From the IMG/VR virus record IMGVR_UViG_3300016702_000415: DNA of 10,726 bases. The stretch is one strand, 5' to 3'. Of the stretch, positions 1,274 through 6,808 are shown one piece after another. How positions within the stretch are numbered: the first letter of the stretch is position 1; each line of letters opens with the position of its first letter. A program made the position numbers and the translations under genes. Under the pieces are notes generated by a model. The model saw nothing but the letters and a program-made list of their open reading frames with translations, did not search any database and had not been told where the DNA came from. This DNA comes from a virus.

Positions 1274-1771
1274 ATGGGAAGACCAATTAGTCCGACAAGT
1301 TATCGACAACTTGCATTGAAAGAAGGATGCACTAAGTCAACCATTGGTTATCGACTTGGGCGTGAAACGAAATTTCATGGGCATTGTCAGCAATGTGGAC
1401 GAGAGTTGAATAGTAAGCGGAAAATACGCTTTTGTAATTCCAAATGCTATGCTGATTATCTCTATGAGAAGTACATTAGAGAGTGGAAATCGGGGCAGAT
1501 CGGTGGCGGAAGTAGTACAGGTGATGTGAGTGGACATGTGCGCCGATTTTTGTTTTCAAAGTATGAAAATCGTTGTAGTAAATGTGGATGGGCCGAAATC
1601 AATCCAACTACGGGGTTGGTTCCGCTTGAAGTCAATCACATTGATGGAAATTGCTCTAATCACATTGAAAAAAATTTGGAGTTGATATGTCCAAATTGTC
1701 ATTCCTTGACACCGACATTTCGTAGTTTGAATAAGAGAAGTAATCGAAAGCGTAAAAGTTTATGTCAGTAG
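1274..1771 (+). CDS. HNH endonuclease, 165 aa, with an N-terminal zinc ribbon
   Basis: The tiled ORF 1199-1771 begins inside the tRNA. The first in-frame ATG after the tRNA is at 1274. The HNH motif reads [25 protein letters not shown]. Upstream Cys pairs are CQQCG...CNSKC and CSKCG. Stop is TAG. Confidence 0.75.
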
Positions 1772-1837
1772 GCTTGGCAGCTACGAGCGACGGCTCACCA
1801 CCGGGATCGTTACCCGGCACGCATGTAACAGTGTGTG

Positions 1838-1878
1838 GTTTTGGACGGATTCAGGTTCGATTCCTGACTACTGGCTCA
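1838..1878 (+). pseudogene. tRNA 3-prime fragment (T-arm plus 3-prime acceptor strand, no CCA)
   Basis: TCAGG-TTCGATT-CCTGA is followed by CTACTGG. No convincing complementary 5-prime strand or anticodon arm lies within 80 nt. Upstream TGGTTTTGGACGGA resembles a decayed Leu-type D-loop. Confidence 0.35.
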
Positions 1879-1883
1879 GTTTT

Positions 1884-1969
1884 AGCCGGGTGGTGGAATG
1901 GCAGACACGCAGCGTTGAGGTCGCTGTGTCCGCAAGGACGTGTGGGTTCAAATCCCATCCTGGCTACCA
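1884..1969 (+). tRNA. tRNA-Leu (anticodon GAG), canonical class II, 83 nt plus CCA
   Basis: Acceptor is AGCCGGG/CCTGGCT with one G-U pair. Anticodon stem CAGCG/CGCTG encloses loop TTGAGGT with G37. The long variable arm is GTCC-GCAA-GGAC. T-arm is GTGGG-TTCAAAT-CCCAT. Discriminator is A, followed by CCA. Confidence 0.8.
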
Positions 1970-1981
1970 AGTTTTTGTTGA

Positions 1982-2059
1982 TGCCATGTATCCCAATTGG
2001 CAGAGGAAGCAGGTCGAGAACCTGTGAATGTGTGGGTTCGACTCCCACCGTGGCAACCA
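1982..2059 (+). tRNA. Leu-like tRNA lacking the long variable arm (anticodon GAG, C at position 33), 75 nt plus CCA
   Basis: Acceptor is TGCCATG/CGTGGCA. The Leu-type D-arm is TCC-CAATTGGCAGA-GGA. Anticodon stem GCAGG/CCTGT encloses loop TCGAGAA. The variable loop is 6 nt. T-arm is GTGGG-TTCGACT-CCCAC. Discriminator is A, followed by CCA. Confidence 0.55.
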
Positions 2060-2060
2060 T

Positions 2061-2137
2061 CAGGGAGTAGCGCAGTCTGGTAGCGTGTCCGCTTTGGAAG
2101 CGGAAAGTCGCTGGTTCGAGTCCAGCCTCCCTGACCA
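2061..2137 (+). tRNA. tRNA-Pro (anticodon TGG), 74 nt plus CCA
   Basis: The acceptor and D-arm are identical to the tRNA at 125-201 (CAGGGAGTAGCGCAGTCTGGTAGCGTG ... CTCCCTGACCA). Anticodon stem TCCGC/GCGGA encloses loop TTTGGAA. T-arm is GCTGG-TTCGAGT-CCAGC. Confidence 0.8.
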
Positions 2138-2162
2138 AATTTCGGATGCTAGATACGTGTGT

Positions 2163-4553: not shown

Positions 4554-5202
4554 TGTTATTCCTGATGTGAATCCCACAGGCCGTGTGATGGTATGGGGTT
4601 CGACTACATTGGATCTTGTTGCCAAGAACAAGGGTTGGAAACCTGGGACATTTTTGAACGAGAATTTCGATCAGCGTATCTGGAGAACGAAGTATCCGAC
4701 GTTGAACGATGACGCTGAGATCCATGAGTTTGGTTCCATTCCGGCATTCGAGGGAACGAGATTTATCCGGCCCGTGCATGACATGAAAGTGTTCGCCGGG
4801 ATGGTGATCCACAACGTTGAATTGGAGCAGTGGAAGGAAACCATTCAGCGATATTCGGATGGCTACATTACGTTGCGCCCGGAGACGCCTGTGAGCATTT
4901 CCAGCGTCAAGGACATTGAGATGGAGTGGCGCTTCTTTGTGGTGTCTGGCAAGGTCGTGGCTGGCTCCAGGTACCGGCAGTGGGGATTGTCGGACCATCG
5001 GCGGATTTATGCAGCATCGGAGCCGTGGAAGTTTGCACAGGAAATGGTAGATCGCTGGCAACCAAATGAAGCGTTCGTAATTGACTTGGCGAAGGAACAC
5101 AATGATCCTTCATTCAAGGTGATCGAAGTGAATTGTATCAACTCAGCCGGGTTCTACGAATGTGACATGAAGGCCGTGATCGAGGCAATTGAGAGGTTAT
5201 GA
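4435..5202 (+). CDS. ATP-grasp fold protein (phage-type, DUF4343/RimK-related-like), 255 aa
   Basis: The N-terminus MFWVVQEN... and the motif EWRFFVVSGKVVAGSRY resemble ATP-grasp strand motifs. The family assignment is from memory, not from a search. The stop overlaps the next start as ATGA. Confidence 0.55.
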   Translation: MFWVVQENIKDEATYDHFIQALYALNIEHTLVKVVPFSHDVIPDVNPTGRVMVWGSTTLDLVAKNKGWKPGTFLNENFDQRIWRTKYPTLNDDAEIHEFGSIPAFEGTRFIRPVHDMKVFAGMVIHNVELEQWKETIQRYSDGYITLRPETPVSISSVKDIEMEWRFFVVSGKVVAGSRYRQWGLSDHRRIYAASEPWKFAQEMVDRWQPNEAFVIDLAKEHNDPSFKVIEVNCINSAGFYECDMKAVIEAIERL

Positions 5203-5663
5203 TTGCTCGTATAATAGGTGTGGATGGAACAGTGGCACCAAAGAAGAAAGCGATTCATTACGACGAACCGGAGCCATGCAACAGCTTCCATCCGTACACA
5301 AGCAATCCGCAGCTATGTAAGTGTGGCAAGCCTTACACCGAGCACAAAGCCTTCATGGAAGTTTTGATCGAAAAAGAGAGGAAGCGAAAAGAGGAAGAAG
5401 AATACCAACAGAAGCGTGCGAAGCTAATGGAACTTTGTACGACAGAGATCGACCCCGAAGCAGAGGACGAAGATATAGTCGATCTTGGAAATGGTTGGAA
5501 GCTACCACGAAAGCAATTTGAAATGCTTCGTGACATGGCGCTGAAGAAGTTGAATGAACCGCCAGCAGCCAGCACAGTAACGCAGTCTTCGTTCTCGACA
5601 AGTTGGGTTGGGCCGTTGCCATACGAAAGAAAATTTGGTGGCGGCGGGATGAAAAAGTGTTGA
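5199..5663 (+). CDS. Hypothetical protein, 154 aa, with Cys/His pairs and a Lys/Glu-rich coiled segment. Translationally coupled to the ATP-grasp gene.
   Basis: An ATGA overlap sits at 5199-5202. Motifs include CNSFHPY...CKCGKPYTEH and EKERKRKEEEEYQQKRAKL. Confidence 0.5.
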   Translation: MIARIIGVDGTVAPKKKAIHYDEPEPCNSFHPYTSNPQLCKCGKPYTEHKAFMEVLIEKERKRKEEEEYQQKRAKLMELCTTEIDPEAEDEDIVDLGNGWKLPRKQFEMLRDMALKKLNEPPAASTVTQSSFSTSWVGPLPYERKFGGGGMKKC

Positions 5664-5664
5664 C

Positions 5665-6033
5665 ATGACTTTGAAAGAGATGGTAAAAGACAAGACAGTC
5701 AAGTTCGTATGTTATCGTGACGGCGAACTGACTTATCGGACAGAAGATGGATTCGAGTTCCCGGTCCCGATCAGCGACACCGGCACTGGAACGTTCCTGG
5801 CCGAAGATAAAGCCATCTTGTTCATGCGTTGGATTCGCAAACAGCTTGATTTGGTGAAGGAGTGGAAGTCGGAAGCGGAGAAAGAAGAAGAGGCATATTG
5901 GACGCCCGACGAGCCAATGAGTCCTGAACTGGCCGCAGCCAACAGGAAATTGTTCAACAGCATTTTAAGAGCGAGAATTCCTGAAGAGGCAGTTCTCCGG
6001 TTCACAGAAGAAGATATGGAGAATTTGCCATGA
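5665..6033 (+). CDS. Hypothetical protein, 122 aa
   Basis: It starts 2 nt after the previous stop. It ends in an ATGA overlap with the next ORF. Confidence 0.5.
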   Translation: MTLKEMVKDKTVKFVCYRDGELTYRTEDGFEFPVPISDTGTGTFLAEDKAILFMRWIRKQLDLVKEWKSEAEKEEEAYWTPDEPMSPELAAANRKLFNSILRARIPEEAVLRFTEEDMENLP

Positions 6034-6242
6034 CATACTATCGACAGTGCGTGCTAGTCAAAAAGGCCACACAGCAGGTTGCCTGGATACCGGAGGAATT
6101 TGCTGTGGTTGGTAAATATGTTAGACTGAAAGAGGACGACGGTTGGAAAGTGACCAACACGAGCGAACATCGTCAGAGCGAAGAGTACGTACAGGCGCAT
6201 GAGCGAGATCACATGGGGCATCGTTCGAGAACGGACATTTAA
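6030..6242 (+). CDS. Hypothetical protein, 70 aa
   Basis: An ATGA overlap sits at 6030-6033. It ends 6 nt before tRNA-Ser. Confidence 0.45.
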   Translation: MTYYRQCVLVKKATQQVAWIPEEFAVVGKYVRLKEDDGWKVTNTSEHRQSEEYVQAHERDHMGHRSRTDI

Positions 6243-6248
6243 GATTAC

Positions 6249-6341
6249 GGAAGGTTGGCAGAGTCAGGTATTGCACCAGTTTGCTAAACTGCGGTCAACC
6301 TCTAAAGGGTTGCGGGCGTTCAAATCGCTCACCTTCCGCCA
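6249..6341 (+). tRNA. tRNA-Ser (anticodon GCT), class II, 90 nt plus CCA
   Basis: Acceptor is GGAAGGT/ACCTTCC. Anticodon stem CAGT/ACTG encloses loop TTGCTAA. The long variable arm is GCGGTCAACCTCTAAAGGGTTGC. T-arm is GGGCG-TTCAAAT-CGCTC. Discriminator is G, followed by CCA. Confidence 0.8.
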
Positions 6342-6367
6342 TTTTCCGCCAATGTATAAATATTGGC

Positions 6368-6808
6368 ATGAGTTTGAAATCTGAACGCAACAAGTCCACT
6401 CAACTTGGCATGTCAATGGGAACGGCCAGTGGGCGACTGAAAAAGCTATTGCTGTTTAGCATGGCGCAGCGATTGGGTGAAGATGTTTGTTTTCGCTGCG
6501 CTAACAAAATCGAATCGGTTGATGATTTTACCATTGACCATAAGAAGGATTGGTTGAATGCGGACGCCGGGTTGTTTTGGGATCTGGAGAATATTGCATT
6601 TTCACATAGTAAGTGTAATGTGCCTGGGACGAGACACGGTGGGTATTTCAAGCGAAAGATCGGGCCTGTTGGCACTTCGTGGTGCGCTGGTCATAAGAAC
6701 TTTCTTTTAGTTGAGAACTTTCGGTCGCACGCAGGAATGTTTAACCAACTTTATCGGTATTGTAAGGAATGCGAGGCGGCGAAGAGAAAGAAGTACGAAG
6801 GTAGATAG
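6368..6808 (+). CDS. HNH-family endonuclease, about 146 aa
   Basis: The tiled ORF 6281-6808 starts inside the tRNA. The first ATG after it is at 6368. Motifs are CFRCAN and FTIDHKKDW...LENIAFSHSKCN. The TAG stop overlaps the next tRNA start. Confidence 0.65.
   Translation: MSLKSERNKSTQLGMSMGTASGRLKKLLLFSMAQRLGEDVCFRCANKIESVDDFTIDHKKDWLNADAGLFWDLENIAFSHSKCNVPGTRHGGYFKRKIGPVGTSWCAGHKNFLLVENFRSHAGMFNQLYRYCKECEAAKRKKYEGR

Follow-up and report, generated by a model that had tools for sequence, protein, structure and literature searches.

HNH endonuclease genes in the tRNA array of an uncultured huge phage: three probably mobile, one fixed

When free-standing nuclease genes lie between the tRNA genes of a phage, the question arises whether they entered the array as mobile homing genes or are there for another reason. 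Four such genes of the HNH type, here called HNH1 to HNH4, are found in a stretch of 10,726 nucleotides (nt) of viral DNA, IMG/VR record IMGVR_UViG_3300016702_000415 (the window, i.e., the whole stretch analysed). The window carries 14 tRNA genes, all on the plus strand and grouped by amino acid, for which ARAGORN and Rfam agree (three Pro, seven Leu, and four Ser). The comparison with related phages presented below indicates that the four HNH genes probably represent different lineages residing in tRNA-array spacers, of which HNH1, HNH3, and HNH4 are mobile genes of the homing type and HNH2 is an old fixed resident.

The four open reading frames (ORFs) are all present and intact on the tRNA strand, as the initial annotation of the window had it (Table 1). 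Each is free-standing, with its own start codon and a tRNA or tRNA-like gene on either side, and neither an intron nor an intein is involved. The short gap described between the CCA end of the upstream tRNA and each HNH start measures 6 to 34 nt, and the TAG stop codon of all four window genes lies at or overlaps the next tRNA or tRNA-like element, as had also been claimed. The orthologues suggest that the true start of HNH3 is the conserved MPK start at 3084. No Shine-Dalgarno-like sequence was seen upstream of the four ORFs. The core motifs quoted in the annotation are correct, and the catalytic and zinc-binding residues are retained in all four proteins, i.e., CSKC...VNH...N...CPNCH in HNH1, CSRC...FHH...CANCH in HNH2, CEKC...LHH...N...CANCH in HNH3, and CFRC...IDH...N...HSKCN in HNH4. 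All four matched PHROG HNH endonuclease families (E values: HNH1, 1.6e-14; HNH2, 2.1e-24; HNH3, 2.4e-36; HNH4, 5.2e-20), and none gave a GIY-YIG match in Pfam or PHROG. Pfam bore out the assignment in part: HNH4 exceeded the gathering score of the HNH family PF01844 (25.5 bits; cut-off, 21.4), whereas HNH3 (HNH_3) and HNH1 remained below the gathering score and HNH2 had no match. In an alignment of 33 HNH2 homologues, C32, C35, F45, H47, K53, C77, and C81-A-N-C-H85 are invariant, and the family profile matches the HNH domains of McrA (6ghc) and of the Gme/Geobacter structure (4h9d); the formin matches returned by a PDB search with the single HNH2 sequence were spurious, and the family profile was needed. 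The mutual divergence noted at the outset was also found: the four proteins are alike only at the HNH core, where the best pair shares 36% identity over 59 amino acids (aa) (E 2e-4), and HNH4 resembles none of the others; they therefore belong to different lineages. Orthologue pairs in related phages have ratios of nonsynonymous to synonymous divergence (dN/dS) of 0.04 to 0.16, and the genes are therefore real and functional. All four are HNH (beta-beta-alpha-metal) endonuclease genes of four lineages, with a predicted nuclease activity.

Table 1. Features of the HNH-bearing tRNA array and the vault-protein gene in the window (HTH, helix-turn-helix; gap, distance of the HNH start from the upstream tRNA)
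Feature	Position	Strand	Length	Gap (nt)	TAG stop	Remarks
Degenerate tRNA-like element	800-924	+				Holds 866-921; ARAGORN at -ps80 only
tRNA-Ser(tga)	1177-1267	+				5' neighbour of HNH1; ARAGORN, Rfam
HNH1	1274-1771	+	165 aa	6	1769-1771	HTH-like N-terminal region and Zn ribbon, then HNH core CSKCGW...LEVNHIDGN...; stop in the acceptor-like 5' strand of element 1765-1878
Window-specific tRNA-like element	1765-1878	+	114 nt			ARAGORN at -ps80 only; without CCA
tRNA-Pro(tgg)	2061-2137	+				5' neighbour of HNH2; ARAGORN, Rfam
HNH2	2163-2513	+	116 aa	25	2511-2513	Minimal HNH, CSRCGF...LQFHH...K...CVCANCH
tRNA-Leu(tag)	2513-2599	+				Begins with the G of the HNH2 TAG; ARAGORN, Rfam
tRNA-Leu(caa)	2963-3049	+				5' neighbour of HNH3; 78% identical to the counterpart in the closest relative
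HNH3	3078-3557	+	159 aa (157 aa from 3084)	28 (34 from 3084)	3555-3557	N-terminal ...IDYSHF domain and HNH core CEKCGL...LELHH...NLLVLCANCH; last 12 nt inside element 3546-3641, stop at 10-12 nt into it
Conserved class-II tRNA-like element	3546-3641	+	96 nt			Acceptor GAGTCAG/CTGGCTC; supplies the HNH3 stop
tRNA-Ser(gct)	6249-6341	+				5' neighbour of HNH4; 97% identical to L032
HNH4	6368-6808	+	146 aa	26	6806-6808	HTH-like N-terminus, HNH core CFRC...TIDH...ENIAFSHSKCN, C-terminal Zn ribbon; 2-nt overlap of the stop with tRNA-Ser(gga)
tRNA-Ser(gga)	6807-6897	+				Overlapped by the HNH4 stop; mosaic patch
Major-vault-protein homologue	8097-10628		843 aa			MVP_shoulder (E 1.5e-21), Vault_3

The window is a piece of an uncultured huge phage (approximately 400 kb) from peat or soil metagenomes, because relatives of its vault protein lie on contigs of 370 to 570 kb with baseplate genes. 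The vault-protein family is large, with at least 3,668 matches at E<=1e-5 among 8,000 candidates scored, many of which are on contigs of that size; in the neighbourhoods read on some of the vault-protein contigs, genes for the gp5 hub, PAAR, and the baseplate proteins gp25 and gp6 were seen, and the contigs of the relatives measure 370 to 400 kb. The first report of vault proteins encoded by phages was a 2023 preprint (10.1101/2023.11.10.566534). A megablast comparison of the whole window with GenBank phages gave a single 73-nt tRNA match and nothing else, so that the window has no close cultured relative among them; no relatives were found when IMG/VR was queried with the ATP-grasp protein of the window. 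Nine contigs with an identical ATP-grasp protein are 99.4 to 99.9% identical to the window. The relatives compared here are nine syntenic ones recovered via the vault protein and HNH2, and are ranked by identity of the vault protein: L032-L036 (90%; closest relative L032/L033, ATP-grasp 93%), L012 (82%), L013 and L015 (79% each), L019 (76%), L017 (75%), L018 and L039 (68% each), and L038, an 860-bp fragment that does not cover the vault-protein gene. Their common backbone order is Pro, Pro, Leu(cag), Ser(tga), Leu(gag), Pro(tgg), Leu(tag), Leu(caa), Leu(caa), and Leu(taa), followed by KOW and ATP-grasp genes and, further on, by Ser(gct), Ser(gga), Ser(cga), the phosphatase, and the vault protein.

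Across these arrays, presence/absence polymorphism is seen for three of the four genes. The closest relative is without HNH1, HNH3, and HNH4 and has clean empty sites in their place, and the distribution of the three is patchy elsewhere. HNH1 has an orthologue in L012 only, at the equivalent site (68% identity, dN/dS 0.16). It is absent from its site in L033, L017, and L013, the last of which carries an HNH3-family gene there, and HNH1-family genes occupy three different inter-tRNA spacers across the clade. The GC content of HNH1 is 40% (window, approximately 50%) and that of its third codon positions (GC3) is 33% (backbone genes, approximately 50-62%). The upstream tRNA-Ser(tga) has an 'AGAGG'-type acceptor in the window, and the Ser(tga) of the relatives at that position is of the 'GGAAG' type.

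The sole orthologue of HNH3 is P0170/L038 (67% identity), which again follows tRNA-Leu(caa), at a distance of 19 nt. The site is empty in L032, L015, L017, L019, and L012, where the sequence reads Leu(caa)...CCACCA-AAC-TTG(A/G)GTCAGGGTAG; that of the closest relative is CCACCA-AAC-TTGGGTCAGGGTAG. The occupied junction in the window reads CCACCA-(~493 nt)-TTGAGTCAGGGTAG, with the insert exactly between CCA and TTGAGTC. Members of the HNH3 family are found in five different inter-tRNA spacers among the relatives, and the GC3 of HNH3 is 44% versus approximately 50-62% in backbone genes.

HNH4 does not follow the backbone: it is shared by the window and L015, a 79% relative, and is missing from L032 (90%) and L012 (82%). 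The L015 copy, the only orthologue, is 69% identical and ends 10 nt inside Ser(gga). At this site, L032 has an unrelated 121-nt spacer, and L012, L013, L017, and L019 hold other genes. The Ser(gga) gene of the window is 73% identical to that of L032 and 98% identical to that of L015, the other carrier, but also 94% identical to that of the HNH4-free L017, while Ser(gct) and Ser(cga) on its two sides are 97 to 98% identical to L032. As for other contents of this interval, HNH4 is the only gene in the window at 6342-6806, and most relatives, among L012, L013, L015, and L019 compared, have a Methyltransf_21 gene and sometimes other ORFs between Ser(gct) and Ser(gga). A truncated HNH copy (110 aa versus 153 aa) is present in L033. 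Elsewhere in L013, an HNH_4-type gene at 15319-16110 lies on the opposite strand between tRNA-Gly(tcc) and tRNA-Gly(gcc), which in L012, L015, and L017 are separated by only 8 to 54 nt; here, too, a tRNA spacer is the site of a clean insertion polymorphism.

HNH2, on the other hand, shows no presence/absence polymorphism, and here the expectation of variable occupancy failed. All relatives covering the site have it ahead of tRNA-Leu(tag), with 58 to 92% identity; at least 17 orthologue clusters at 62 to 92% identity were found. Its divergence tracks the backbone, with dN/dS of 0.04 to 0.12 and a backbone-like GC content. HNH2 is a long-established resident, fixed throughout the clade; it has reached fixation or been domesticated.

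The relatives of these genes in cultured phages are found in similar places. The best GenBank-phage homologues of the four proteins are 31 to 53% identical, and 13 of the 15 sit within tRNA arrays, in the same orientation as the tRNAs and often abutting or overlapping the downstream tRNA (ES17 and PJN101 are the exceptions). Direct homologues in the same-strand tRNA/HNH/tRNA layout are carried by E. coli phage mistaenkt (Felix O1-like; two genes), Proteus phage Mydo, Bacillus phage JBP901, Gordonia phage GodonK, Pseudomonas phages KIL2 and PT07, Enterococcus phage iF6, and Cronobacter phage GAP32; the other array-borne homologues are those of XbC2, RN05-S, nickie, and LR756511. The homologues of cultured phages differ from the window genes in that their sequences are distant, their backbones unrelated, and the adjoining tRNA species different. 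Taken together, the compared arrays show genes being gained, moved to other sites, fixed, degraded, and lost, a pattern that is classic for free-standing homing endonuclease genes.

The parallel with phage T5 drawn in the initial annotation is a good one. T5 has hegA, hegC, and hegD in its tRNA region, and their enzymes are F-TflI, F-TflII, as well as F-TflIV according to Akulenko et al. (2004), as cited in PMC2330249. Both in T5 and in the window, several free-standing HNH genes lie in the tRNA array on the tRNA strand and abut tRNA genes; an overlap with the 5' end of the tRNA or pseudo-tRNA that follows is seen for hegC and hegD (14 to 23 nt), and the HNH stops in the window also overlap the next element; and tRNA-like stable RNAs and a pseudo-tRNA are present in the T5 region, as such elements are here. 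HNH3 is homologous to hegA (35% identity over 82 aa, E 9e-15), and HNH1 is homologous to it over the core only (38 aa); for HNH2 and HNH4, no homologue was detected in the T5 tRNA region. Unlike T5, a siphovirus of 122 kb, the host of these genes is an uncultured huge phage, and any nicking by their products is predicted from sequence.

The best model for how the window genes probably work is SegB of phage T4. The segB gene lies between tRNA genes of the T4 tRNA cluster and is absent from related phages; its product, a GIY-YIG enzyme, recognises a conserved motif of the tRNA T arm and ensures near-100% inheritance of itself and the neighbouring tRNA genes in mixed infection, and processing of the next tRNA has been proposed to sever its mRNA just ahead of the stop, after the last codon (PMC2330249). 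The resemblance is in the mode of action only: the fold is HNH instead of GIY-YIG, there are four genes instead of one, and the behaviour of SegB was demonstrated experimentally, whereas we infer that of the window genes. HNH genes have also been described in viral tRNA clusters, including those of mycobacteriophages, where they belong to the core or the accessory gene set, and were proposed to spread tRNA genes (PMC6409571, PMC5966550); that proposal comes from in silico surveys only, and the host range and gene families differ from those of the window.

By analogy, the window HNH genes most likely work like SegB. During co-infection, the nuclease would cut or nick the HNH-less allele within or beside a tRNA gene, and recombinational repair would then copy the HNH gene into the cut allele, with the conserved flanking tRNA genes serving as homology arms and at times being co-converted. 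Each cassette fills its spacer exactly: it begins some 20 to 40 nt past the upstream CCA and runs on into the following tRNA or tRNA-like gene, the 5' end of which supplies the stop codon. The only strong terminator of the window follows the vault-protein gene, at 10648-10675. Promoter and terminator scans inside the tRNA array gave no signal above shuffled controls, which fits a single precursor transcript, and the array appears to be one transcription unit. If so, the cut that RNase P makes in processing the following tRNA would fall at or within the stop codon of the mRNA, as proposed for segB, and expression would probably be low.

Several observations weigh against the homing reading. The nine near-identical copies of the window do not differ in their HNH genes, and within-population polymorphism is therefore not seen. 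The shared TAG and the tRNA overlap, which are real in the window, do not extend across the families: orthologous and related genes end in TGA, TAA, or TAG, often 37 to 280 nt short of the next tRNA, and the stop codon overlaps the next tRNA in just 7 of the 19 HNH genes of the clade. Since overlap is limited to these 7 genes and all three stop codons are used, we regard the overlap as a consequence of tight insertion and not as a defining trait. TAG recoding, considered as a cause of the shared stops, was rejected because orthologues stop at the same place with TGA or TAA. The nonsynonymous divergence of the HNH1 and HNH4 orthologues is 0.24 to 0.25 versus 0.28 to 0.30 for the ATP-grasp gene; the two genes have thus diverged about as much as the backbone, and they may equally well be ancestral and repeatedly lost as recently gained. 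The tRNAs beside polymorphic HNH genes are less identical as a trend only (means of approximately 80% versus 86%). Finally, nuclease activity, transcription, and the mechanism as a whole are predictions from the sequence.

The same spacers could have been filled passively, as transcribed, non-essential 'safe harbours' between conserved sequences in which small genes land by ordinary or illegitimate recombination, with neither tRNA targeting nor self-spread. Other small ORFs (zn64, zn58, orf65, a methyltransferase, and a thioredoxin) do occupy equivalent spacers and also vary among the relatives, and the tRNA genes are mosaic even where no HNH gene is adjacent, the first Pro(tgg) being only 67% identical. 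We nevertheless consider passive filling rather improbable: the recurrence of four unrelated HNH lineages in the tRNA arrays of phage families far removed from one another (13 of the 15 homologues) is hard to explain without a target preference, recognition of the T-arm motif has been demonstrated by experiment for SegB (PMC2330249), and purifying selection preserves the catalytic residues of the HNH ORFs. A reading of the ORFs as unexpressed pseudogenes or remnants in decay, with the pattern due to annotation noise in a repeat-rich tRNA region, is largely refuted and hardly credible. The lack of a Shine-Dalgarno-like sequence, the Pfam scores of HNH1 to HNH3, which fall short of the gathering threshold, and the truncated copy in one relative would agree with decay; the reading frames, however, are full-length with all catalytic and zinc-binding residues, the PHROG matches are strong, and orthologues keep their starts and ends with dN/dS far below 1. 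One or more of the HNH proteins, and above all HNH2, could instead be domesticated and serve the phage, by site-specific nicking of genomic DNA, by helping DNA packaging, or by excluding related co-infecting phages, and would then have ceased to be mobile. For HNH2, the constant site, the number of orthologue clusters, the low dN/dS, and the backbone-like divergence and composition would suit such a function. It is somewhat unlikely in our view: the homing cycle, too, normally includes a stage of fixation with slow decay afterwards, the HNH2 family occurs sporadically in tRNA arrays of the unrelated phages KIL2, nickie, and LR756511, L018 has an unrelated HNH gene at the equivalent site, and no link to terminase or replication genes is seen. 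The homing reading can also be taken further. Several HNH lineages may be specialists of tRNA arrays for which the conserved tRNA-gene sequence is both cleavage target and homology arm, hopping between the spacers of an array and between unrelated phages together with neighbouring tRNAs; they would be the main engine of tRNA turnover in huge phages, their dosage would be set by the RNase P cut at the stop codon, and HNH2 would have been retained as a functional gene across the clade. This wider proposal is possible but tentative.

Three tRNA fragments in the array (866-921, 1838-1878, and 3572-3636) had been taken in the initial annotation for scars of endonuclease action. They are low-scoring tRNA-like calls of ARAGORN at relaxed thresholds and belong to larger elements at approximately 800-924, 1765-1878, and 3546-3641. 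The elements of 3572-3636 and 866-921 are conserved in HNH-free relatives, and only that of 1838-1878 is specific to the window; because two of the three elements are conserved regardless of an adjacent HNH gene, the fragments are mostly not endonuclease debris. Element 3546-3641 is 86 to 93% conserved in L015, L017, L019, L012, and L032, including genomes without HNH3, and its cloverleaf consensus contains four covarying pairs across five genomes. It has an anticodon-like loop of 6 to 7 nt with ATT or GTT, often without U33, and a G53.U61 pair, and ends in A-ACA without an encoded CCA, which all true tRNAs of the array have. The Rfam tRNA search did not call it at E<=1; it is reminiscent of the stable tRNA-like RNAs that the T5 annotation shows among the tRNAs. 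In element 1765-1878, the acceptor-like TCAGTAG (1765-1771), which includes the HNH1 stop, pairs with CTACTGG (1868-1874), and the T arm is TCAGGTTCGATTCCTGA (1851-1867); no homologue was found in the relatives, and its fold is not significant (z-score -1.1). Thermodynamic folding of the tRNA-like elements alone was not significant (z approximately -1.2 to +0.2), and the support for 3546-3641 came from comparative data only. Directly upstream of tRNA-Leu(gag), the relatives have a conserved element of approximately 115 nt (L033 1953-2067, L017 1991-2110, L013 3319-3436, and L012 2096-2222) with acceptor-stem-like ends, TCGTGTCG...CGACACGA-CCA; in the window it is replaced by the unrelated 1765-1878, which is of similar length. 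Element 800-924 is 86% identical to L033 1601-1773, from the HNH1-free closest relative, and 71% identical to L013.

This element is also a degenerate copy of a tRNA-Ser(tga) that default ARAGORN missed in L012 (1320-1412), L017 (1737-1826), L018 (4920-5006), and L033 (approximately 1865-1953). The missed gene lies right after Leu(cag) and has a sub-threshold Rfam tRNA-Sec score of 32 to 39 bits; the window and L013 have the degenerate copy plus a separate Ser(tga) of a different type downstream. Four tRNAs with 'Leu' anticodons (703-781, 1982-2059, 3744-3822, and 3830-3906) are 77 to 79 nt long and therefore lack the long variable arm that bacterial tRNA-Leu typically carries. Leu tRNAs of the normal 86 to 87 nt with the same or related anticodons (two gag and two caa) lie beside them, and the short caa tRNA is 95% conserved in the closest relative.

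A further tRNA-like gene in the window, at 950-1143, is of normal order but interrupted. Its perfect 7-bp acceptor is formed by GAGGCAG (950-956) and CTGCCTC (1133-1139), followed by ACCA, and more than 100 nt of unstructured sequence separates a canonical D arm from a T arm (fold z = -1.2). It is absent from L012, L013, and L033 and was not called by the ARAGORN intron mode, which gave only artefacts bridging neighbouring tRNAs. Its 3' part resembles, in L017 and L018, the upstream piece of an apparent circularly permuted or two-piece tRNA-like gene, which is found in relatives (L017 1840-1960, L018 5170-5290, and L039 2215-2400) and not in the window. The upstream piece of the permuted gene consists of a hairpin, a GNRA-looped variable arm, a T arm, and the 3' acceptor strand with ACCA; after 6 to 10 nt, the downstream piece supplies the 5' acceptor strand and a Leu-type D arm. 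The acceptors are complementary at 7 of 7 positions via two compensatory changes (CTTCTCC/GGAGAAG, CTTCCCC/GGGGAAG, and CTCCTCC/GGAGGAG), and the T stem covaries. Neither ARAGORN nor Rfam called the gene, and pattern scans of viral_contigs and metagenome_contigs gave no further copies. Permuted tRNA genes are not known outside a few algae and a single archaeon; permuted two-piece tmRNA genes occur in some bacteria.

Among the protein genes beside the array, the ATP-grasp protein of the R2K_3 clade (4435-5202) is conserved across the whole clade of relatives. The gene at 7425-7982 encodes a dual-specificity or tyrosine phosphatase, the N-terminus of which, MKRLLFALLLCLPVFAQS, is signal-peptide-like as judged by eye. 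One contig, L003, is otherwise 99.9% identical to the window and has a deletion of approximately 50 bp at window positions 4274-4322, within ORF 4203-4553.

HNH genes in phage tRNA clusters are already documented from T5, from mycobacteriophages, and in surveys of viral tRNA clusters; what is new here is the presence of four members in a huge-phage lineage together with the record of their turnover. The finding is sound but unsurprising, and current understanding is not overturned. As an annotation lesson, several 'pseudo-tRNA fragments' beside HNH genes are conserved tRNA-like RNAs and not debris. The locus provides a clear metagenomic case of the gain, fixation, and loss of homing genes in a soil huge-phage lineage that has never been cultured, and extends the view of tRNA clusters as homing hot spots, which comes from T5 and T4, to this lineage. 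It also suggests why phage tRNA arrays are mosaic: the tRNA genes are interspersed with nuclease genes whose relatives occur in the arrays of widely differing phages, and the conserved tRNAs can serve as recombination arms.

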